Shown in pieces: positions 2,060 to 62,282 of a DNA stretch of 64,000 nt (the first letter of the stretch is position 1; each line of letters starts with the position of its first letter). Source of the stretch: Alphaproteobacteria bacterium UBA6178 (GTDB lineage Bacteria; Pseudomonadota; Alphaproteobacteria; Rickettsiales; UBA3002). The notes under the pieces are model-generated. The model saw only the letters and a list, made by a program, of their open reading frames with translations, was not told the DNA's origin and searched no databases. Location of the stretch: assembly GCA_002422205.1 (NCBI GenBank), contig DITS01000033.1, positions 4,083-68,082 of the forward strand, read 5' to 3'. Position numbers and translations under genes: made by a program.

Positions 2060-2932
2060 TCAGCTTGGTGGATGAGCCGCGCCAGCCTCGTGGATTGCCG
2101 TGATTTTTTCGGTCATATACGGCGGAAGCGTGGCGGTGAGTGTGAGGCCATTTGCATAAAGAGGCAATGTGGATTGTGCCGCTTCGATACGCAGCAGCGC
2201 CAAGCCTATCGTACCATTAGATGAGCGCATTTCACCGACGGGTTTTTCGTTATCAGCACGGGTGATGGGAGTGCCAATCGCTGGCAGCGGGTTATCAGCG
2301 GTGATGATGTAGAGGCATTTGCGCAGGATGTTGCGGTAATGCATGCGGGCGGTGACCTCTTGTCCGACATAGCAGCCTTTGGTGAAGCTGATGGCGTGGA
2401 GTTGGTCGTAGCCAAGCTCCATGATGACGGCGCGCTCGGACGCATCGGCTGCGCCGCTGGGGATGCCGAGTTGCAGGCGGTGTTGGTCGTAGGCTTCGTA
2501 AGGCGCGGTGGCGTCGAGCGGGGTGTGGCTGAGGATGCGGATGCCGAGTGCAGGGTGACGTGGGTCGGGGAAGGCTGGATTCCCGCTTTCGCGGGAATGA
2601 CATGGTTTATCCTCGCCCCATTCCGCGTAGATGTGCCATTGATTGGATTCATCGGTGATGGTGACTTTGGAACGGAGTTTGTAGCGTTTGAGTTTTTTTT
2701 GCAGCGCATCGGCGAGGGGGAATTCGGTTTCGAGCAGGATGTCGTCGCCATCGCGGATTAAAAAGAAATCATGCTGGAATTTGCCTTGCGGGGAGAGCAT
2801 GGCGGCGAAGATTGCGGGCTGCGTGCTCAGCGCATTGATGTCGTTGGTGATGAGGCCTTGCAGAAAAGGGCGCGTATCCTCGCCGGTGAGGCGCAGTATG
2901 GCACGGTTAGGGAGAGCGCAGCGTGAGGTCAT
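2060..2932 (-). CDS. ygfZ: YgfZ/CAF17-type folate-binding protein (Fe-S cluster / tRNA modification associated)
   Basis: 290-aa ORF; RAILRLTGEDTRPFLQGLITNDI and KGCYVGQE motifs. It carries an in-frame hairpin-repeat insertion (CHSRESGNPAFP). Confidence 0.8.
   Translation of the reverse strand: MTSRCALPNRAILRLTGEDTRPFLQGLITNDINALSTQPAIFAAMLSPQGKFQHDFFLIRDGDDILLETEFPLADALQKKLKRYKLRSKVTITDESNQWHIYAEWGEDKPCHSRESGNPAFPDPRHPALGIRILSHTPLDATAPYEAYDQHRLQLGIPSGAADASERAVIMELGYDQLHAISFTKGCYVGQEVTARMHYRNILRKCLYIITADNPLPAIGTPITRADNEKPVGEMRSSNGTIGLALLRIEAAQSTLPLYANGLTLTATLPPYMTEKITAIHEAGAAHPPS
2574..2603. repeat. hairpin repeat GGATTCCCGCTTTCGCGGGAATGACA inside ygfZ
   Basis: The stem ATTCCCGC/GCGGGAAT carries compensatory changes relative to the ATTCCTGC/GCAGGAAT copies. 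Confidence 0.85.
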
Positions 2933-2937
2933 GGCTA

Positions 2938-3993
2938 TTATATAGGGGGGGATGCGTTGGGGACAAGGGCACGCACTTGCTGTAGGGCTTGCTGCAGGCG
3001 GGCGCTGATAATGGTGATATTATAGGTTTCGTCGATGGTGCGCTGCGCGGCTTTGCCAGCAGCGATTGCAGCGTCGGGGTTTTCGAGCCATTCGGTGAGG
3101 GCTTGTGCCATTTGATAGGGGCGGGCTTTTTCGACCATAATGGCATTGCGCTCATGAGTGATGATTTCGCACGGGCCTTCGCTGTCGGTGGTGATACAGG
3201 GCAGGCCTTGCGCCATCGCCTCGATAAGGACAATACCGAATGGCTCGTGCTGCGAGGGTAGCACGAAAATGTCGAGCTGATCGAAGAAGGCTTGTTTGTC
3301 TTCGACCCAGCCGGTGAAGGTGAGGTGGTTATGCAAACCGAAATCCTGCGCTTGTTTTTGCAGCTGGGTGGTGAGGATGCCGTCACCGCCGAGCAGTGCG
3401 CGGAAGGGGACGGATTGATCTTTGAGTGCTTTGAGGGCGTGAAGGAAAATATCGAAGCCTTTTTTATCGACAAAACGGCCCATGCTACCGATGACGGGCG
3501 GGTCGCGGAAATGGGTGCGTGCAGCGGCAGTCGGCATGCGTACCATGTTAGGCATGTGGCATAATTTTTCGCGCGGGATATTGAGATGTACCATTTCTTC
3601 GAGCAGGTCGCGGGTGATGGTGAAGATACCATCGGCACGAGGAAAGCGTTTTTTGATATTGTAATTATGTGCTACGGCGATGACAGGCACGCGGCCTTTT
3701 AATGCTTTGAGCGTGAGACCCAATGCGCGGTTGCCATGCGCGATGGCGATGTCGGCCTGTGCTTCTTTTGCAATGCGGCGCAGGCGACGTGCGGCCAGCC
3801 AGTCGCGCTCGCTGAATTGGGAGAGGCTTTGGGTGGGGAATGATTGCGCCGTGAATGTGGGCTGTAAGGCGCTGTGGGGATGCAAAATGCTAGTGACATT
3901 GTTGCCTGCCATGTGCAGCGCTTCGTGGTAATCAAGCGCGGCTTGTTCCAGCCCGCCTTTGCCCTTGCCTAACATGATATTGAGAATATGCAT
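2938..3993 (-). CDS. glycosyltransferase family 4 (GT-B)
   Basis: EPFGIVLIEAMAQGLPCITTD (E-X7-E region). The start is set at MHILNIMLGKGKGG (ATG 3993), because the longer ORF would read through the heptamer repeat at 3999-4059. Confidence 0.8.
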   Translation of the reverse strand: MHILNIMLGKGKGGLEQAALDYHEALHMAGNNVTSILHPHSALQPTFTAQSFPTQSLSQFSERDWLAARRLRRIAKEAQADIAIAHGNRALGLTLKALKGRVPVIAVAHNYNIKKRFPRADGIFTITRDLLEEMVHLNIPREKLCHMPNMVRMPTAAARTHFRDPPVIGSMGRFVDKKGFDIFLHALKALKDQSVPFRALLGGDGILTTQLQKQAQDFGLHNHLTFTGWVEDKQAFFDQLDIFVLPSQHEPFGIVLIEAMAQGLPCITTDSEGPCEIITHERNAIMVEKARPYQMAQALTEWLENPDAAIAAGKAAQRTIDETYNITIISARLQQALQQVRALVPNASPPI

Positions 3994-3998
3994 TTTAT

Positions 3999-4059
3999 GT
4001 TCGTGATTCGTGGTTCGTAGTCCGTATAGCATACGAATCCCGAATTACGAATCCCGAAT
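3999..4059. repeat. inverted repeat with 7-bp-periodic arms (GTTCGTG ATTCGTG GTTCGTA ... TACGAAT CCCGAAT TACGAAT CCCGAAT)
   Basis: Lies between the GT4 start and the usg stop. Confidence 0.8.
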
Positions 4060-4340
4060 TAATGAATGAGAAACTCGCCTTTGCCCAAGCGCCAGTCGGT
4101 GGGTTGTACCAGCTGCAGCGAATCGACTTTGACGGAATGGATTTTGCCGTCGAGTTCGCGGTTCCAGAAATCAAGAAATTGGGTGAGAATGGGGAATTTA
4201 GGGGCGCGGTCGAGCTCTTGCCAGACATAGCTTTGCAGCAAGCGCGGATGGTCAGGAAAGTGATAGAGGATTTCGGCAGTCGTCAGGCGCCAGTCGCGCA
4301 GCATCAGCTCGAATTCGGATGGTTTGATTTCATGTGTCAT
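4059..4340 (-). CDS. usg: Usg family protein
   Basis: LRDWRLTTAEILYHFPDHPRLLQSYVWQELDRAPKFPILTQFLDFWNRELDGKIHSVKV matches the alphaproteobacterial Usg-like family. The start is chosen at MTHEIK. Confidence 0.75.
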   Translation of the reverse strand: MTHEIKPSEFELMLRDWRLTTAEILYHFPDHPRLLQSYVWQELDRAPKFPILTQFLDFWNRELDGKIHSVKVDSLQLVQPTDWRLGKGEFLIH

Positions 4341-4570
4341 ATTGCACCTCACCCTTGGGTAGCCGGACGCCACCCTTCACTTTATTATAGTCAAAAATTC
4401 TTTAATTTTCTCTTAATTTGTAGCGATTGTGGATAATGCTTTGTGTCAGGGGTGGGGCGGGGATGATTTTGTTTTTTGCAATCAACGGGTTTTTGTGGCA
4501 TAACAAGCGTCATCTTTGCGTTGGGGCGAAATGCAGAGGTAACCTGAATTTACAAGGAAAACAGCTATTT

Positions 4571-5608
4571 ATGACCCCCATCCGGATTCATGATAGGGCT
4601 TTGTGGTGCGCGGCTTTGGGTTTTGTTGCCCTGCTGTTGGTGGGCGCGTGCAGCCCGACAGAGCAGCCGGTGCAGCCTGCGAGCGTGGAGCCTGCACTGC
4701 ATGATGATTATTTTATTACCAAGGATAATTACAAGCTGCCCTTGCGCCGGTTTATGCCGGAAGGTGCGCCTAAGGCGGTGATTATTGCGCTGCATGGGAT
4801 GAATGATTACAGCAATGCCTTTACGGGTGCGGGGGATTATTTTAAGGCGCAGGGGCTTGCGCTTTATGCCTATGATCAGCGTGGCTTTGGGGCGAACGGG
4901 ATGCGCGGAATTTGGGGCGGCAACCAGAATTTGATGACCGATATGGCGCAGCTGGCGGCGCTGGTGAAGCACGAGCATCCGTCTGCGCCGGTGTATGTAT
5001 TGGGTGAGAGCATGGGCGGGGCGGTAGCGATTAATGCCATGTCGGCTGCTGATTTGGCGGAAGTGGATGGGGTGATTTTATCGGCTCCCGCGGTGTGGGG
5101 CGAGGATGCGATGAACGGGTTTTACCGTGCATCGCTATGGCTGATGGCGCATACGTTTCCGGCTTCGGAATTTACCGGTGAGGATTTAGAGATTCTAGCG
5201 TCGGATAATATTGCGATGTTGCGGGCGCTGGCAATGGACCCGCTAGTGATCAAGCAAACACGGGTGGATGCGATGTATGGAATTGTGGGGCTGATGGATG
5301 ATGCCTACCGTAATATTGAACAGGTGAAAAAGCCGGTATTGGTGCTGTATGGTGCTAATGATGAGGTGATTCCAGCCGATGCGGTGACGGGCGCGATTGG
5401 ACGGATTACGGCACCTTATACGGTGGCGTATTACCCCAAGGGCTATCATATGTTGCTGCGCGATTTGCAGGGCGAAGTGGTGCTTGGTGATATTGTGAGC
5501 TGGATTGAAGACCGGTATAAGCCGCTGCCGTCGGGTTCGGATATGGGCTGGCGGGATGATATGCGGCTGGTGTATGAGCGTAATGCGCATCAGGCGGCGC
5601 TGCAATAG
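4571..5608 (+). CDS. alpha/beta hydrolase (lysophospholipase / monoacylglycerol-lipase-like), probable lipoprotein
   Basis: HGMNDYS, the nucleophile elbow GESMGG, and a signal peptide with lipobox-like LLVGAC. The start is taken at MTPIRI rather than at the ORF-track start 4427. Confidence 0.8.
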   Translation: MTPIRIHDRALWCAALGFVALLLVGACSPTEQPVQPASVEPALHDDYFITKDNYKLPLRRFMPEGAPKAVIIALHGMNDYSNAFTGAGDYFKAQGLALYAYDQRGFGANGMRGIWGGNQNLMTDMAQLAALVKHEHPSAPVYVLGESMGGAVAINAMSAADLAEVDGVILSAPAVWGEDAMNGFYRASLWLMAHTFPASEFTGEDLEILASDNIAMLRALAMDPLVIKQTRVDAMYGIVGLMDDAYRNIEQVKKPVLVLYGANDEVIPADAVTGAIGRITAPYTVAYYPKGYHMLLRDLQGEVVLGDIVSWIEDRYKPLPSGSDMGWRDDMRLVYERNAHQAALQ

Positions 5609-5693
5609 GCTGGGGATGGGGCAATGTATTTCCTCGCCAAAGGCGGCTTTTGCCGCTATGGTGGCTGGCGTGATATTTGCAAGGTGTCAGTGA

Positions 5694-6740
5694 ATGACCA
5701 AACGCTATGGAAAATTTTGCCGGTTTGTGGCGCTGCTGAGTGTGGTAGGGGCTTTTTATGCTCCTTCTGCGATGGCAGTCCCCCGTGATGCGATGATTGA
5801 AGGGGCCAAGCAATGCACGCAGCATTTTCCTACCCATGAGCGGTTAAACGGCATTCCGACACATTTGCTGGCGGCTATCGCGGCGACGGAATCGGGGCGT
5901 TATAACAAAACGCTGGGCATGGTTTTGCCATGGCCGTGGACGGTGAATGCCAACGGGCAGGGCTATTATCTGGATACGAAAGCCGAAGCAGTGGCGAAGG
6001 TGAAAAGTCTGCAGGCCAAAGGCATTAAGAGCATTGATGTGGGCTGTATGCAGGTGAATCTGTATCATCATCCGAATGCGTTTGCGTCGCTCGATCAAGC
6101 GTTTGATCCGCGCTATAATATTGCGTATTCGGCCAAGTTTTTGCGCCGTAATTATGATGATCTGGGGACCTGGGTGAAGGCGACGGGTGCTTATCATTCG
6201 CGCACGCCGAAATTCGGAAATATCTATTTGGGTAAAATTGAAAAATCATGGCGTTCGATTGTTGGCAAAGTGCGTGAAGCGCGTGCCAGCCGTGGGATGG
6301 ATCAGGGGCAATACAGCCTTGCGGCGGACCGCGATTTTGATGCGTTAAGCCGTGCCTTTACCAACCATGCCAGCCGCGTACCGGTATCGGAAGTGGATGG
6401 CCGCGCGGGGCTTTCTGCGTCGAGTGCGTCGTCTCGCACCGGTGTATCGTCGCGTAGCATGAAAATGATTTCGGTGCGTGAGCCGAGCGACAGATCACGC
6501 GAGAATGTGATGGTGATTCGGCCCACGCATGTACCGGCCAAGGCTAGCGTCAGCGTGAGCGATGATAAGCCGTCGGCGACGCGAGTGGCGTCGATTCACG
6601 ATAATATTTTTGTGTTGAACACGACCAAAACCAGCGCCAATACCGGTTCGTCCTTTGTGAAAACAAGTGGCGTGACAAATAAGACGACGCCTGCTAAGCC
6701 CAGTGCGCAATCGGCACCAAAATTTATTTTTGTGGATTAG
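5694..6740 (+). CDS. lytic transglycosylase (SLT domain) with a long S/T-rich C-terminal tail
   Basis: Signal peptide (...PSAMA), catalytic AAIAATESGRYN, and GCMQVN / YHS blocks. Confidence 0.75.
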   Translation: MTKRYGKFCRFVALLSVVGAFYAPSAMAVPRDAMIEGAKQCTQHFPTHERLNGIPTHLLAAIAATESGRYNKTLGMVLPWPWTVNANGQGYYLDTKAEAVAKVKSLQAKGIKSIDVGCMQVNLYHHPNAFASLDQAFDPRYNIAYSAKFLRRNYDDLGTWVKATGAYHSRTPKFGNIYLGKIEKSWRSIVGKVREARASRGMDQGQYSLAADRDFDALSRAFTNHASRVPVSEVDGRAGLSASSASSRTGVSSRSMKMISVREPSDRSRENVMVIRPTHVPAKASVSVSDDKPSATRVASIHDNIFVLNTTKTSANTGSSFVKTSGVTNKTTPAKPSAQSAPKFIFVD

Positions 6741-9086: not shown

Positions 9087-9536
9087 TTATCCACACTGCA
9101 TGGCTTTGGGTAACGAGGCCTCTTGCTCACGAATTTTTTTGGCCATGCCCTGTCCTTCCTCGATTGCCTCTTTGATATCGTCGCTTTTGTATAGCAACAC
9201 TCTAGCCAGCCCATCATACGACATGATGCTGGCGGGGATGCTCACTTTGAATTGCATGTTGAGCAGGTTGTTTTTGGCACGCCTATTAACATCAGGATTA
9301 CCAATGGTGGTGATTTTCTCTCCGTTATCGCCTTTGACCGTGTCGTTCAGTGCGTTGGCAAGCGCTTGTGCAACAGGCCCGCGCAGATAGCGGTCGGTCA
9401 CTACACTGTCGGTGGCTTCATCATAGGTGAATTGGCAGGTGTCTTGAGTTATGGCGTTCAAAACGGAAGTGGTTTGCTGGTGGTTAAATTGTTCGGCTGT
9501 GTCCATTTGTTCGGCTGTGGTATGGTTTCCGTGCAT
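9087..9536 (-). CDS. orphan hypothetical protein (149 aa)
   Basis: Long ORF. The start is reset to MHGNHTT (ATG 9536), which is preceded by AGGAGA. The longer ORF-track start would overlap the upstream box at 9601-9618. No family recognised. Confidence 0.6.
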   Translation of the reverse strand: MHGNHTTAEQMDTAEQFNHQQTTSVLNAITQDTCQFTYDEATDSVVTDRYLRGPVAQALANALNDTVKGDNGEKITTIGNPDVNRRAKNNLLNMQFKVSIPASIMSYDGLARVLLYKSDDIKEAIEEGQGMAKKIREQEASLPKAMQCG

Positions 9537-35719: not shown

Positions 35720-35824
35720 GTTCGGAGAATGACGCTAACACAGCCTGTGGATAAAATCCAGAAAATTTATATGCGGGCTGTTTTTAGCGTGAAGTTTGCA
35801 GCAAATGGCTTTAGAGACTGGCGT

Positions 35825-52198: not shown

Positions 52199-53671
52199 AT
52201 GAACCAATCACCTATTCGACCGTTTCCGGTTGCCAAGACCATGTCGCTGGATGTGGGGTTATTGCATTTTGTGGGGATTGGCGGCATTGGCATGAGCGGG
52301 ATTGCCGAGCTGCTGCATAATCTGGGTTATCAGGTGCAGGGGTCGGACGTAGCAGAAAGCGCTAATGTGGAGCGGCTGCGCGGGTTGGGGATGCAGGTGA
52401 TGGTCGGCCATGAGGCGGCGCATGTTACCGATGCGGCGGTGGTGATTATTTCCTCGGCGGTGAAGGCGACGAACCCGGAGGTGGTCGAAGCGCGCAATCT
52501 GCGTATTCCGGTGTTGCGCCGCGCGGAAATGCTGGCGGAGCTGATGCATTTGAAAATGACGGTGTCGGTGGCGGGTACGCATGGCAAGACCACGACGACG
52601 TCATTGATTAGTGCGTTATTTGAGGCGGCGGGGCGCAATCCGACGGTGATTAATGGCGGGATTATTAATGCCTATGGTACCAATGCGGTGCTGGGTAAGG
52701 GCGAGTGGATGATTGTGGAAGCCGATGAATCGGACGGGACGTTTATTCGCATTCCGTCATCGGTGGCGGTGGTGACGAATATCGACCCTGAGCATCTTGA
52801 TCATTATGGCAGCTTTGATGCGCTGCGTGCGGCGTTTAAGCAATTTCTCGATCATATTCCTTTTTATGGGTTTGGCGTGTTGTGTATGGACCATCCGGAA
52901 GTGCAGGCGCTGATTGCGCAGATTACTGACCGGCGGATTATTACCTATGGGGTGTCGCCACAGGCCGATGTGCGCGCGGTGCAGGTGCGGCAAACGTCGA
53001 GCGGGCAGCATTATGATGTGGAAATTACCAACCGTGCGGATGACAGTGTGCATGTGATTCGTGATGTGCATTTGCCGATGTTTGGCCAGCATAACCTGAC
53101 CAATTCACTGGCGGCGATTGCGGTGGCGCATGAGCTGGGGATGCCGGACGGTGCGATTGTCAAAGGCTTTGGCAGCTTTAGTGGTGTGAAGCGGCGCTTT
53201 ACCAAAACCGGCGAAGTGGGTGGCATCACGGTGATTGATGATTATGGCCATCATCCGGTGGAGATTGCGGCGACGCTGAGTAGCGCAAGGCAAGCGGTGA
53301 GCAGCAATGGCGGGCGCGTGATTGCGGTGGTGCAGCCGCATCGCTTTACGCGGTTAAAAAGCCTGTTTGATGATTTTTGCACCTGTTTTAATAATGCGGA
53401 TATGGTGCTGGTAGCTGATGTGTATACGGCAGGAGAAGACCCGATTGAAGGTGCAAACCGTGATGCGCTGGTGGAGGGGATTCGTCGTCATGGGCATAAG
53501 CATGTCGCGCCGCTGGATTCGGAAGAGATGCTGGCCACACAGGTGGCGGCATTGGCTAAACCCAATGATTTTGTGGTGTGCTTAGGCGCGGGCAGTATTT
53601 CGAAATGGGCAAACGCATTGCCGGCGCAACTTGAAAAGGTGATGGATGCAAGCCGTAAAGCCAGTGCGTGA
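52199..53671 (+). CDS. murC: UDP-N-acetylmuramate--L-alanine ligase
   Basis: [17 protein letters not shown], and [12 protein letters not shown]. The start could instead be MSLDVG at 52241. Confidence 0.95.
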
Positions 53672-54566
53672 GCCGACGCTTCTAGCGCGATTGCCGTCTG
53701 TACGCGGGCGTTACCGTGAGCATGCTTCGCTGGCGGAAACCACCTGGTTTCGTGTGGGCGGGGTAGCTGATATTTTGTTTAAACCTGCGGATGTGCAGGA
53801 TTTGGCGGATTTTATGCGAGCCAAACCGGCTGATGTGCCGGTGACGGTGCTGGGTGTGGGATCGAATGTGATTGTGCGCGATGGCGGGATTGACGGGGTG
53901 GTGATTCGCCTTGGGCGGGGCTTTACCGATATGGATATGGAAGGTGATATGCTAGTGGTTGGCGCGGCTTGCCTTGATGTGCATGTGGCGCAATTTGCGG
54001 CGGAGCAATCACGCGCGGGGCTGGAGTTTTTGGTGGGCATTCCCGGCACTATGGGGGGGGCGCTGGCGATGAATGCGGGCGCTTATGGGCGCGAGATGGT
54101 GGATGTGCTGGTGGCAGCAGAGGCCGTGAGCGCGCAAGGCGAAATCCGTTGGTTTGATTGTGCGGAGCTTGATTATCGCTATCGCCATTGCGGGCTGGGC
54201 GAGGGGTGGATATTTACCCGTGCGCGCTTGCGCAGCGAAGCGGGCGACAAAATGGCGGTTTTACAAGCCATGCAGGCGATATCGGATGCGAGGGAAGCCA
54301 GCCAACCGGTGCGCGCGCGCACCGGTGGCAGCACATTCCGCAATCCAACGGGGCAAAAAGCGTGGGAGTTGATTGACGCCGCCGGTTGTCGTGGTATGAT
54401 GCTTGACGGGGCACAAGTGTCAGAGAAGCATTGCAACTTTCTGATTAACACGGGCACCGCTACCGCGCAGGCGCTTGAGCAATTGGGTGACATGGTGCGG
54501 CAAAAAGTCAAAACGCATTCCGGCATTGATCTGGAATGGGAAATCAAACGAATCGGCAAGAAGTGA
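53646..54566 (+). CDS. murB: UDP-N-acetylenolpyruvoylglucosamine reductase
   Basis: [27 protein letters not shown], and NFLIN. Confidence 0.95.
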
Positions 54567-56542: not shown

Positions 56543-57805
56543 ATGAAGCACGAAGCCATCAGAGGACGCCCCGGTAGTGTGGCTGTGCTGGATATCGGCA
56601 CCACCAAAATTGTCTGTTTTATTGCACAAGTCGATGATGAGGGCGTGCTGCGTGTGCTGGGCGTGGGGCATCAGCTGGCCAAAGGCATTAAATCGGGTGT
56701 GATTACCGATGTGGGTGAGGTGGAAACCTCGATTGTGGCCGCCGTGCATGCGGCGGAGCAAATGGCCGGTGAAACGATTGAGAATGTGATTGTGAGCGTG
56801 AGCGGCACCAACATGCATTCGCGCAGTGTGACGGTGGAGCTGGAAGTGACCGGCGAAGGTGTCAGCGATTATGATATTGCGGATTTAATTCAGGAAGGCT
56901 GCGCCAGCTTAGAAGATGACGCGCATACGATTTTGCACGCGTTTCCGGTGCAGTATTATCTGGATAATGCCAAGGGGTTGGGCGATCCGCGCGGGATGGT
57001 GGGCGATGTGCTGGGCAGTGAGCTGCATGTGGTATCGGCGCGTAACAGCTATCTTAAAAACATGATTAATTGCGTGGCGCGGTGCCATTTGAATATTGAT
57101 GAATATGTGCTGGCCAGCCATGCATCGGCCCTATCGGTGCTGGAGCCGGACGAGATGGATTTGGGCGTGACGTTGATTGATATGGGCGGCGGCGTGACCA
57201 GCTTTACGGTGTTTGTCGGCGGCAAGAATGTGTACAGCGATTCGATTCCGGTGGGTGGTAAGCATGTGACGAATGATATTGCCAAAGGCCTGTCGACCAC
57301 GCTAACGCAAGCCGAGCGACTGAAAACGATTCATGGCAGCGCCATCGGGTCGGTGAAGGATGCCGAGGTGATGATTGAAGTGCCGCAGCTGGGCGAAGAA
57401 GAAGACGAAGATGATGTGAATATGATGCCGCGCTCGATGCTGGTGGGGGTGGTGCGGCCGCGGATGGAAGAAATTTTTGAGTTGATTCGCGCCAAGCTGG
57501 AAGCGGCGGGTGTGGATAAGGTGGCGGGACGGCGCTGCGTGATTACGGGCGGGGCCAGCCAGATGATCGGCGTGAGTGATTTGGCCGCGCGCATGCTGGG
57601 CAAACAGGTGCGCAAAGGTAAGCCGCATGCGGTGCCGGGCTTGGCGGATATGGCGAGCGGGCCGGCATTTGCCACGGCGGTCGGCATGCTGGAATATGCC
57701 ACCAAACGCCCATGGGAAGATGTGCTGCTGCGCGGCTCATCCGTGCGCGGCGGGCTGGCGCAGACGAAAGAAAAAATCGTCAACTGGTTCAGAGAGAATT
57801 TTTAA
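56543..57805 (+). CDS. ftsA: cell division protein FtsA
   Basis: VAVLDIGTTKIVCFI, and LIDMGGGVTSF. Confidence 0.95.
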   Translation: MKHEAIRGRPGSVAVLDIGTTKIVCFIAQVDDEGVLRVLGVGHQLAKGIKSGVITDVGEVETSIVAAVHAAEQMAGETIENVIVSVSGTNMHSRSVTVELEVTGEGVSDYDIADLIQEGCASLEDDAHTILHAFPVQYYLDNAKGLGDPRGMVGDVLGSELHVVSARNSYLKNMINCVARCHLNIDEYVLASHASALSVLEPDEMDLGVTLIDMGGGVTSFTVFVGGKNVYSDSIPVGGKHVTNDIAKGLSTTLTQAERLKTIHGSAIGSVKDAEVMIEVPQLGEEEDEDDVNMMPRSMLVGVVRPRMEEIFELIRAKLEAAGVDKVAGRRCVITGGASQMIGVSDLAARMLGKQVRKGKPHAVPGLADMASGPAFATAVGMLEYATKRPWEDVLLRGSSVRGGLAQTKEKIVNWFRENF

Positions 57806-58717
57806 TTAGCGGGTGGCAACAGCCGATGTCCCTGTACCACCGCTCTCAATTTGCAATAATTCGTTCGTTTGACTGGCATAATGTTTGCCCATATGGCCGG
57901 CCAGCTCCGTAAATTGCTCTTCGGTTAGGTGGGTTTTCCAGCCTGTGCTAACAAGCAATTGATAAACGCCATAAGCCACTGTGGCTACGATACCAATATT
58001 AAGCCCACCATTAACCATGCTTTCTACAGTTGTGTGTGGTTCTTCGTCAGAGGGTTTCAGGCCATATGCTGCAGCAGCAATCACCGCTGCTCCACCTGCT
58101 TTTAAAAACGCACGGCGTCGCATGGTATCCCGTGCTTCACCCGGTAATTCATTGCCTATGGGAAAGCCGGTTTTTACACGATTGTCATATTTATCAGTGC
58201 TACCAAACCCATCATAATTAAGCTTATGCAGTCTAATTGCGAAGCTTTTTTCGGCTCTACGAATCGCGTTTCTGACTACATCATTATAGTCTCTTTTAAT
58301 ATCAACGTTTTCGCCAGCGGCGACAGCCTTAAAAAAGGACATCAGCTCTTCAGCATTCTGCTGGAAACGCTCATTGGCTAAGCCCGCCATTTTTCGGTTA
58401 AGGTTATATTCAGGATCCTTTAGATGATCTGTGCCATAAGGATAATGAATTTGCAAATCAGGATTATCTGAAATTTTTAGCTTACTAGAAACGCCGTCGG
58501 TTGTGTTTTCATCATAAAATCGACGGGCATCAATTTCCAAATGCTCAAATGCCATGGCTACAATATAAGGAAAGGCGTATGTCTGTATAAGCGTTTTGGG
58601 GTCTTTGCGTAGCGGATCCTTATCGGCCACATAGTTGACCATACTATCAGTTACAACATCATATAATTGGTTATGCGCCTTATGCAATTCTGTATTACTA
58701 CGCGTTAATTGTGGCAT
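57806..58717 (-). CDS. orphan membrane protein (303 aa) inserted between ftsA and ftsZ
   Basis: Its stop (TTA 57806-57808 on the plus strand) abuts the ftsA TAA. It has two hydrophobic segments about 20 aa apart near the C-terminus (AFLKAGGAAVIAAAAYGL / GLNIGIVATVAYGVYQLLV). No family recognised. Confidence 0.65.
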   Translation of the reverse strand: MPQLTRSNTELHKAHNQLYDVVTDSMVNYVADKDPLRKDPKTLIQTYAFPYIVAMAFEHLEIDARRFYDENTTDGVSSKLKISDNPDLQIHYPYGTDHLKDPEYNLNRKMAGLANERFQQNAEELMSFFKAVAAGENVDIKRDYNDVVRNAIRRAEKSFAIRLHKLNYDGFGSTDKYDNRVKTGFPIGNELPGEARDTMRRRAFLKAGGAAVIAAAAYGLKPSDEEPHTTVESMVNGGLNIGIVATVAYGVYQLLVSTGWKTHLTEEQFTELAGHMGKHYASQTNELLQIESGGTGTSAVATR

Positions 58718-58782
58718 TGTGTGTCCCCATAATTAAAATTTAAAATCCGGTCTTGTATTAGCTGATTAAAATAAACCATAGT

Positions 58783-58800
58783 GTTAATTATTTATGAAGA
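58783..58800 (-). promoter_or_regulatory. weaker Pho-box-like site upstream of orphan 57806-58717
   Basis: In gene sense: TCTTCATAAATAATTAAC. The first half-site is identical to those at 9601 and 18401. TATTTT lies 10 nt downstream. The site is 66 nt from the ATG. Confidence 0.3.
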
Positions 58801-59022
58801 AACCGCTGTGTTAGGAGATGAGTTATGGAAAGGGGCGCATGTTATCCACAACTATATCTTGCGGGGGTTTTTTCCGTTGCAACGAGATTTAGGATTCTGC
58901 TATAGGTAGAGGGAGCTTTTCATGCACTGAAAAAGCGTAAAAAAGATAATAAAATACCGTTTCGGCAAGATATAAAGATTTGAAAAACAAACATTTTAGG
59001 CCTGTCCTGCCGGAGAGTTCGT

Positions 59023-60699
59023 ATGACCATTAATCTGCATTTACCGTCGCATTCGGAAACATTGAAGCCCAAAATCACCGTTGTCGGGGTGGGGGGTGCC
59101 GGTGGTAACGCCGTGAATAATATGATTGCCGCCAATCTGGAGGGCGTCGATTTTGTGATGGCCAATACCGATGCGCAGGCGCTTGAGTCCGCGATGACGG
59201 ATCGCACGATTCAGCTGGGTATGTCGGTGACGCGCGGTTTGGGCGCAGGGGCCAGCCCGCAGATTGGTCAGGCAGCTGCCGAAGAAGCGCTGGATGAAAT
59301 CGCCGATTATATTAATGGTAGTAATATGGTGTTTATCACTGCCGGTATGGGTGGTGGTACGGGCACAGGTGCGGCGCCGGTGATTGCGCAGCTGGCGCGC
59401 CAGCAAGGCATTCTGACCGTCGGTGTGGTGACTAAGCCATTCCAGTTTGAAGGCACGCACCGGATGCGTATCGCTGATCGCGGGATTGAAGAATTGCAGC
59501 AATATGTTGATACGCTAATTGTGATTCCGAACCAGAATTTATTCCGTATTGCCAATGAAAAAACAACCTTTGCCGATGCGTTCCGCATGGCAGATGAGGT
59601 GCTGCATTCGGGTGTGCGCGGCGTGACCGATCTGATGGTGAAGCCGGGTTTGGTGAATCTGGATTTTGCCGATATTCGTGCCGTGATGAGCGAGATGGGC
59701 AAAGCGATGATGGGCACCGGCGAGGCGGAGGGCGATAAGCGTGCGATTGACGCCGCCGAATCGGCGATTTCGAACCCGCTGCTGGATGATGTTTCCTTAC
59801 GCGGCGCGCGAGCGGTGCTGATCAATATTACGGGCGGCCCTGATATGACCTTGTTTGAGGTGGATGAAGCGGCGAACCGTATCCGTGATGAGGTGGACCC
59901 TGAGGCGAATATTATTTTCGGCTCGACCTTCAGCGATTCGATGGAAGGTAAAATGCGGGTGTCGGTGGTGGCGACAGGGATTGATGCAGCTGCGACAGCG
60001 GCGAGCATTACCAGCCATCGCAGCCAGTCGGCGGCGATGTCGCAACCGCGCCCGATGGAAAATGTTGCGAGGGAAGCCCGGCAACCCAAGCCATTCAATA
60101 TTATTCCGCCCAAACAGGAAATGAAGCAAGAGCGCAGCCCTGCAGAAATCGTGCGTCAGGCTGGTAGCGCCTCGGCATATGATATTGCGCGGATGGCGAA
60201 TGAGCGCATTATGGGTCAGCCACAACAACAGGCGACTGCTTTGCAAGAGCCGGTGGTGCGCGTGAAACAAACACAACAGGAAGAAACGCTGTTTGTGCAG
60301 GAGCAAGGCCAGTTGGCGATTGATGTGCCTGGCGAAGACCGCCGCCGCCCGTTTAAGCTGGGTGAGGTGAAAGACCAGTTTGGTGATGGCCCGTTATTTA
60401 TGAGCCCCAAGCCGGAGCAACCCGCGCAGCGCACGCATTTTGCTGCGCAACAGCCAGAGATCGATGAAGCAGTGGCTGAGGAAGAGCAAGAAGGCACGGC
60501 CTTCAATTTCTTCACACGAATTGCCGGTGTGGGTAAGGCGTTGTCAGGCAAGGTGGAAGCTGCGCATCAGGCCGCATCGCCGCGTGAGCGGATGGTGCAG
60601 CAAGGCGGTGCCGCTGCTGTGGTCAAAGATTCGCCACTCACCGAGGAAAATGACGATTATCTGGATATTCCAGCCTTTCTGCGGCGTCAGGCGAATTAG
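59023..60699 (+). CDS. ftsZ: cell division protein FtsZ (long linker)
   Basis: [27 protein letters not shown], and the C-terminal [15 protein letters not shown] peptide. Confidence 0.97.
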
Positions 60700-61907: not shown

Positions 61908-62282
61908 TTAGCGCACCATGTGCGGGTGGGGAATGACGATGGGCAGGTAAATGGTCGAGGGGATATTGTCATATTCCGCGCGGTGCAGATGGCTGGTGAA
62001 GCTGCTGTTTTCTGCTACTTCGCGCGGGAGATTGATGATGGCGTGGCCACGGCCTGTGGATTCGAACACAATCGCGCGTGGGCGGCCCGTCGCGGCAATG
62101 GCCGCTTCCTGCAACTGTCGTACAATATGTGGGGCGCGGATGAGGGTGGTGATGGCATGATAGCCGTTGCGCAATAGCGACGGATTGCTGGGCGGCAAGG
62201 CCCAGCGCAGGCCGGTTGCCTGCTCCAGATGATCAATAATTTCATGCGCGTGGGTGTCTTGACTACTTGCCGGACGGGTCAT
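61908..62282 (-). CDS. orphan hypothetical protein (124 aa)
   Basis: ORF convergent on lpxC with a 20-nt gap. Only a degenerate half-site (TATCAT) lies at the expected upstream distance. Confidence 0.5.
   Translation of the reverse strand: MTRPASSQDTHAHEIIDHLEQATGLRWALPPSNPSLLRNGYHAITTLIRAPHIVRQLQEAAIAATGRPRAIVFESTGRGHAIINLPREVAENSSFTSHLHRAEYDNIPSTIYLPIVIPHPHMVR

Follow-up and report, generated by a model that had tools for sequence, protein, structure and literature searches.

An orphan gene antisense between ftsA and ftsZ in a Rickettsiales-like bacterium is probably acquired cargo in a permissive slot

The dcw cluster usually has one of the most conserved gene orders, and ftsA–ftsZ is among the most stable adjacencies in bacteria. 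In the window analysed here, a stretch of 64,000 nucleotides from the uncultured, aquatic Alphaproteobacteria bacterium UBA6178, the two genes stand 1,217 nt apart, in agreement with the 1.2 kb estimated in a preliminary description of the sequence, and the interval holds a 303-aa open reading frame (ORF303) on the opposite strand (Table 1). The locus raises the question of whether ORF303 is a real gene, how it came to separate ftsA from ftsZ and whether it has any part in division. Coordinates and sequence agree with the earlier account that its stop codon touches that of ftsA (TAA, 57803-57805, followed directly by TTA, the pair spanning 57803-57808 with a 0-nt gap) and that it is more A/T-rich than its neighbours, with a GC of 0.438 in ORF303 and 0.347 in 58718-58841 versus 0.567 in ftsA and 0.562 in ftsZ. 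On the plus strand of the interval every ORF has at most 78 codons, and a search of 57400-59200 against Rfam found no known RNAs.

Table 1. Features of the ftsA–ftsZ interval in the window, and cargo found at the corresponding slot in relatives.
Feature	Position	Strand	Description
ftsA	56543-57805	+	420 aa, native dcw gene; Pfam FtsA and SHS2_FTSA
Inverted repeat, left arm	57797-57813	.	spans the ftsA stop and the ORF303 stop; partly native ftsA sequence
ORF303	57806-58717	-	303 aa, 912 nt, ATG start; apparent orphan protein-coding gene
AT-rich upstream region	58718-58841	-	124 nt, GC 0.35; no counterpart in relatives' spacers
Inverted repeat, right arm	58725-58741	.	8-24 nt before the ORF303 ATG; spans the Shine-Dalgarno-like GGGG
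Candidate Pho-like box	58783-58799	-	CTTCATAAATAATTAAC; 65 nt from the ATG; only the first half-site good
Sigma-70-like promoter match	58814-58787	-	CTAACA-16-AATAAT upstream of ORF303; weak match
Putative native ftsZ promoter/leader	58842-59022	+	elements common to relatives with and without an insert
Perfect DnaA box	58842-58850		TTATCCACA; -181 from ftsZ
Degenerate copy of family palindrome/-10	~58898-58915		upstream of ftsZ
CGGCAAG	~58960-58968		upstream of ftsZ
ftsZ	59023-60699	+	558 aa, native; Pfam Tubulin and FtsZ_C
G016 cargo	L031:1576-2952	antisense	458-aa family-less ORF; stop adjoins the ftsA stop as for ORF303; sequence unrelated
G005 cargo			302-aa orphan
G014 cargo			255-aa orphan and BrnT/BrnA
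G028 cargo			M48-like peptidase ORF and 303-aa membrane protein
L039 cargo			ParD and PIN-like genes
L046 cargo			754-aa orphan
L048 (RFOF01000110)	2072-5721	convergent	virD4-virB11-virB10-like by eye, just past ftsA, where ftsZ is expected

ORF303 reads as a genuine gene, coding over its full length, whose composition looks foreign. We judge it real because it exceeds all shuffles (in 2,000 dinucleotide-preserving shuffles of 57806-59022 no ORF ran beyond 219 codons; mean 81), because its positional GC is coding-like (GC1 0.553, GC2 0.385, GC3 0.375) and because codon-usage log-likelihood ranks the annotated frame first of six, both over the N-terminal 198 codons and over the C-terminal 105. 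A GGGG Shine-Dalgarno-like run stands 7 nt before the ATG. Among the genome's ORFs of 150 aa or more, the GC3 ranks in the lowest 2.3%, and codon usage scores +0.24 bits per codon on the genome's low-GC3 table versus +0.02 on the typical-gene table, on which the means are +0.34 for typical genes and -0.09 for the low-GC3 class. Along the gene, GC is 0.50 in the C-terminal third versus 0.41.

The low-GC3 class consists mostly of scattered singletons and includes a phage Mu F-like gene and other acquired genes. Ten randomly sampled low-GC3 ORFs split evenly into five with a known family (phage Mu F-like, glycosyltransferase, FTR1, HD dGTPase and a second MurB) and five without, a split in favour of viewing the class as a reservoir of acquired genes rather than a coherent orphan regulon. 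The second MurB-like gene (G000:C6:112782-113702, minus strand; 306 aa; Pfam FAD_binding_4 and MurB_C; GC3 0.33) is separate from the murB of the dcw cluster at 53646-54566 of the window, and is probably a horizontally acquired xenologue.

The orphan status given to the gene in the preliminary description held throughout, as homology searches of proteins, genomes, contigs and family libraries returned ORF303 alone. A search of 5.8 billion clustered proteins produced only the self-match, as did HMMER run in full against 1.84 billion representatives, and residues 1-198 and 199-303 searched apart found no homologue. There was no second copy in its own genome, nothing beyond itself in JGI metagenome contigs or IMG/VR viral contigs, no homologue in phage records, plasmid records or PDB sequences, and nothing over threshold in Pfam, NCBIfam, PHROGs or PADLOC; likeness to a known division protein family was sought in Pfam, NCBIfam and PDB sequences and none appeared. 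Six-frame searches of 60 related genomes gave no match (best E 0.03, in the hydrophobic region only). The identical protein occurs on four contigs, including Logan SRR5323107 and JGI 3300001605, always in the context ftsQ-ftsA-ORF-ftsZ-lpxC and with DNA 100% identical to the window over the regions compared. All copies thus represent one population with a single allele, and because they are identical they offer no variation from which to read selection. Two candidate kinships were rejected. A weak tblastn match to phage MazG-like pyrophosphohydrolases (E 0.4-0.5) was discarded since Pfam finds no MazG in ORF303 and the acidic motifs lie ~75 residues apart, and no common motif links ORF303 with a glycine-zipper orphan cluster at 19.3-21.8 kb of the window.

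The close relatives of the window are uncultured aquatic MAGs, mostly labelled 'Rickettsiales bacterium', in keeping with the clades described in PMC9352585, deep-branching Rickettsiales that are probably free-living and possess an rvh type IV secretion system. The FtsA proteins of family relatives are 55-75% identical to that of the window, and we took loci with an FtsA at least 55% identical as the close family (n = 17 informative). Eleven of these loci have an ftsA–ftsZ gap of 122-398 nt, two have one of 1.6-2.4 kb, and four have no ftsZ within at least 4.1 kb of ftsA. The link is occupied or broken in 6 of the 17 close loci versus 1 of 60 more distant alphaproteobacterial loci, ftsZ lying directly downstream of ftsA in 59 of those 60 informative loci. 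The premise that ftsA and ftsZ are normally adjacent and co-transcribed therefore does not hold for the close family, given these six interrupted links of 17 and a conserved ftsZ promoter region that persists even where ftsZ has moved. Additional long gaps occur in G016 (1,548 nt), G005 (1,191 nt) and G028 (2,606 nt); spacers in relatives are otherwise 94-450 nt long or filled by unrelated genes.

The cargo differs from one relative to the next (Table 1), and ORF303 shows no similarity to the gap ORFs of relatives (best E 5.6). BrnT/BrnA and ParD occur in the slots of relatives alone; the ORF303 locus, a single 303-aa ORF devoid of toxin–antitoxin domains, does not have the two small adjacent genes of a type II toxin–antitoxin module. 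Because ORF303 is missing from relatives and the same slot holds unrelated cargo, we conclude that ORF303 is one case of recurrent, independent insertion at the ftsA–ftsZ slot and not a conserved dcw component. The insertion proposed earlier is borne out, as ORF303 is absent from 60 relatives and the intervals of relatives are short or carry other genes, and the contrary outcome then envisaged, a dcw component conserved among relatives, is not the case in those 60 genomes. Such a permissive slot is a place to seek newly acquired genes, including candidate effectors or toxins in a lineage whose rvh secretion system is ancestral.

Alignment of the 200 nt before ftsZ across relatives revealed a palindrome, CACTAcATATAGTG, with a -10-like TATAGT at about -100 from ftsZ and a CGGCAAG nearer the start; both are kept in all aligned relatives, and the loci with the palindrome include L031, L013, L014, L010, L011 and L005. 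Many relatives also have a DnaA-box-like nonamer at -125 to -156. The upstream elements of relatives range from -80 to -180 whether or not an insert is present, and they are still kept in G011, in which ftsZ lies on another contig. Since they persist irrespective of an insert or of a displaced ftsZ, an own ftsZ promoter is, on this comparison, the family norm and not a consequence of the ORF303 insertion. The window has the corresponding elements (Table 1). Their conservation therefore places the native region at ~58842-59022 and the inserted DNA, by the same argument, at ~57806-58841 (1,036 nt, GC 0.427). This bears out the earlier suggestion that ftsZ relies on its own promoter in 58718-59022 and narrows it to the 181-nt stretch that begins with the DnaA box. 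The palindrome is, to our knowledge, not a described operator and may be an undescribed ftsZ operator; elsewhere in the window genome it has only two near-copies, at C5:11058 and C35:84485.

In Caulobacter, ftsZ has an independent promoter, Pz, controlled by DnaA and CtrA. The window resembles Pz in giving ftsZ an upstream control region that is distinct from ftsQA and contains a DnaA box, and differs from it in that no CtrA-type TTAA-N7-TTAA was seen upstream of ftsZ. The 64 kb contain five perfect DnaA boxes versus 0.59 expected, a count that 0 of 100 shuffles reach; besides the one upstream of ftsZ, they lie at 4428-4436, 9087-9095, 35746-35754 and 57511-57519, the last in the 3' end of ftsA. 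In this little-studied, free-living Rickettsiales-like clade the ftsA–ftsZ link has been filled or broken repeatedly by unrelated DNA and the ftsZ promoter region has been kept. Because the link is often broken yet the promoter region is conserved, the comparison shows ftsZ as what appears to be an autonomous transcription unit in the clade. ORF303 alone is one more orphan; its context is the more useful result.

The AT-rich region upstream of ORF303 probably arrived together with the gene. The preliminary description had noted a weak member of a regulon box 66 nt upstream. The site exists, 65 nt from the ATG, but it scores 9.8 bits, compared with 15.9-24.8 for the nine sites on which the matrix was trained, and ~648 sites in the genome score higher (about rank 649), so that we regard it as background. 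The pattern sought comprised two 7-nt half-sites 11 nt apart, 40-80 nt upstream of a start. As a motif, the Pho-box-like direct repeat (approximately TGTCAT-AAAA-CTTCAT) is genuine genome-wide: 97 sites reach 16 bits or more, and most of them lie 40-80 nt before an ORF start; the genes that follow it are of both typical and low GC3, and the repeat is not restricted to orphans.

ORF303 is also bracketed by a 17-nt imperfect inverted repeat, complementary at 14 of 17 positions. With matched windows, a repeat as good was found for 0.6% of genes and 0.2% of shuffles, and the low-GC3 class is not characterised by such repeats. An interpretation as transposon ends is not favoured, the arms being single-copy in the genome, the left arm partly ftsA and a flanking direct duplication lacking; pairing of the 5' and 3' ends of the mRNA (-15.9 kcal/mol) was matched by 6% of shuffles and is not significant.

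The protein is predicted to begin with a helical N-domain of ~200 aa, followed by RRRAFLK (residues 199-205) and an Ala/Gly-rich segment (together 199-220), an acidic loop, a second segment and a 44-aa tail. The features described earlier, two C-proximal hydrophobic segments (~207-220 and 237-259) separated by a short acidic loop, with RRRAFLK before the first, are all present. The designation as a membrane protein fares less evenly. Charges are +4 before segment 1, -4 net in the loop and K/H after segment 2, a pattern that fits a hairpin and makes a membrane tether with N-in, loop-out and C-in topology plausible. The hydrophobicity, however, is marginal: the best Kyte–Doolittle 19-residue means are 1.22 (202-221) and 1.54 (238-256), under the usual threshold of 1.6, 41% of the genome's ORFs reach 1.54, and the best 19-mer has a biological-scale sum of +4.5 (position-independent). 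ORF303 could be soluble. AlphaFold2 run without an alignment gave no confident fold and unusable models (pLDDT 37 for the full protein, 43 for residues 1-198).

The first segment resembles a Tat signal peptide. Residues 198-222 (TMRRRAFLKAGGAAVIAAAAYGLKP) comprise an exact RRxFLK, a weakly hydrophobic h-region and then a basic residue and Pro; the sequence T-M-R-R-R-A-F-L-K, which runs into the uncharged AGGAAVIAAAAYGL, agrees with S/T-R-R-x-F-L-K. No other protein of the crude proteome combines a strict RRxFLK with an uncharged h-region, and the genome encodes TatC (227 bits, G000:C33:32580-33233). ORF303 shares these traits with Tat signal peptides (TIGR01409) but differs from them in position and score. 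Its motif is internal, starting at residue 199-201 of 303, whereas signal peptides are N-terminal and the two or three likely genuine Tat substrates of the genome have theirs at residues 6-22; the TIGR01409 score on residues 201-217 is 16.2 bits, just under the cut-off of 16.7. Actinobacterial Rieske proteins such as Sco2149 carry internal Tat signals. In ORF303, unlike these, the motif is neither preceded by Sec-inserted helices nor followed by a folded cofactor domain. The internal Tat-like motif is a curiosity for membrane-targeting studies.

On balance we favour, as probable though well short of certain, the reading that ORF303 is a genuine, narrowly distributed accessory gene, acquired horizontally as a unit of promoter and ORF in a permissive ftsA–ftsZ slot. 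A compact ~1.04-kb unit, from 57806 to ~58841, would have brought in the promoter region and ORF303 and landed in the one part of the spacer that can be dispensed with, past the ftsA stop but short of the native ftsZ promoter. The slot would tolerate inserts in that ftsZ is an independent transcription unit with a conserved promoter region (DnaA box and palindromic -10-like element), and different relatives would carry different cargo because of this tolerance. The protein would be mostly helical and cytoplasmic over ~200 aa and probably tethered to the inner membrane by the weak C-proximal hairpin, N-in, with the short acidic loop out and C-in, its first limb resembling a Tat signal. Most likely ORF303 is ordinary cargo that was acquired, rather than a new division gene; we infer that its position says little about its function and that it has no role in division. 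With single-gene islets and acquired ORFans it shares a low GC3, occurrence as a scattered singleton, the want of homologues, its own AT-rich upstream region, a place between conserved housekeeping genes and a slot that holds different cargo in relatives. Unlike islets, it lacks an integrase, a tRNA, direct repeats on its flanks and a multi-copy element, and it occupies a slot within the dcw cluster. Nothing that would explain its arrival was found among integrases, tRNAs, target duplications and repeated elements, nor does ORF303 show the transposase or the multiple copies of an IS or MITE: there was no transposase family match, and both the ORF and the repeat arms are single-copy in the genome.

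If ORF303 were just an open frame without function, unexpressed or not under selection, in junk DNA acquired recently, that would agree with the missing homologues, the single allele, the lack of a confident fold and the weak promoter and box matches. Against it, 303 open codons in 43% GC DNA are far beyond chance, the positional GC is of coding type, the best-frame signal extends through both halves and the ATG start has a G-rich run at the right distance, all of which make such a frame unlikely. We give less credence again to a secreted or injected effector or toxin, such as a substrate of an rvh-type type IV secretion system, that would insert its hairpin into a target-cell membrane. Bilobed effector anchors have two hydrophobic lobes with a short loop, an arrangement that the ORF303 segments recall. 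Proteins of this kind are typically orphan, scattered and of atypical GC, VirD4 is encoded in the genome and the lineage is reported to have an rvh system (PMC9352585); yet no known effector domain or C-terminal signal was matched in Pfam, NCBIfam, PHROGs or PADLOC, no immunity gene or chaperone is adjacent, and ORF303 is not beside type IV secretion genes.

Dependence on Tat, either through a start at Met199, whose 105-aa product would have the Tat signal at its N-terminus and an anchor at its C-terminus, or through an internal Tat-type signal-anchor, is a reading we hold to be very improbable. The near-threshold TIGR01409 score, the exact RRxFLK with its uncharged Ala/Gly-rich stretch and following K-P, the presence of TatC, the placing of Met199 exactly before the motif and the higher GC of the C-terminal third all speak for it. 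However, the 198 codons before Met199 are open with the same coding-frame signal, the ribosome-binding site before Met199 is poor (GGGA, 4-nt spacer), the ~16 residues between the hydrophobic stretches leave no folded passenger needing Tat, and the 105-aa piece has no homologue.

The position of ORF303 between ftsA and ftsZ, divergent from ftsZ across a 305-nt shared region with a DnaA box, and its possible membrane tether could instead point to a lineage-specific division modulator co-regulated with ftsZ, acting at the membrane on FtsZ or FtsA or through antisense transcription into ftsA. There is a precedent in StfZ, an antisense RNA from the ftsA–ftsZ region of E. coli that affects FtsZ levels (PMC9628754), with which ORF303 would share minus-strand transcription from this interval; the ORF303 unit differs from it in being a 912-nt protein-coding gene and in running antisense to ftsA and not ftsZ. 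We rate a division modulator lower still, as ORF303 is absent from all 60 relatives searched, the slot elsewhere holds unrelated cargo that includes toxin–antitoxin modules, and the protein has no similarity to known division proteins. Least probable of all, and quite speculative, is a dedicated single-gene landing pad between the ftsA stop and the ftsZ promoter in basal Rickettsiales-like bacteria, in which ORF303 and the inverted repeat would form one such cassette, its product a new kind of protein with an internal Tat-type anchor and its expression divergent from ftsZ under the shared DnaA box; were it true, ORF303 would couple an accessory function to the division cycle.

The touching stops, singled out in the preliminary description, are present but nothing special: gaps of at most 5 nt occur at 38% of convergent junctions involving low-GC3 ORFs versus 40% of others (n = 344, from crude gene calls), and stop-to-stop docking is ordinary in this compact genome. 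No terminator was found between ORF303 and ftsA, the 0-nt gap leaving no room for one. Because none can fit, head-on transcription of ORF303 against ftsQA read-through is plausible, and for the same reason transcription of ORF303 probably continues, in antisense, across the 3' end of ftsA. A further minus-strand ORF (124 aa, 61908-62282) is convergent with lpxC and lies ~20 nt past the lpxC stop.
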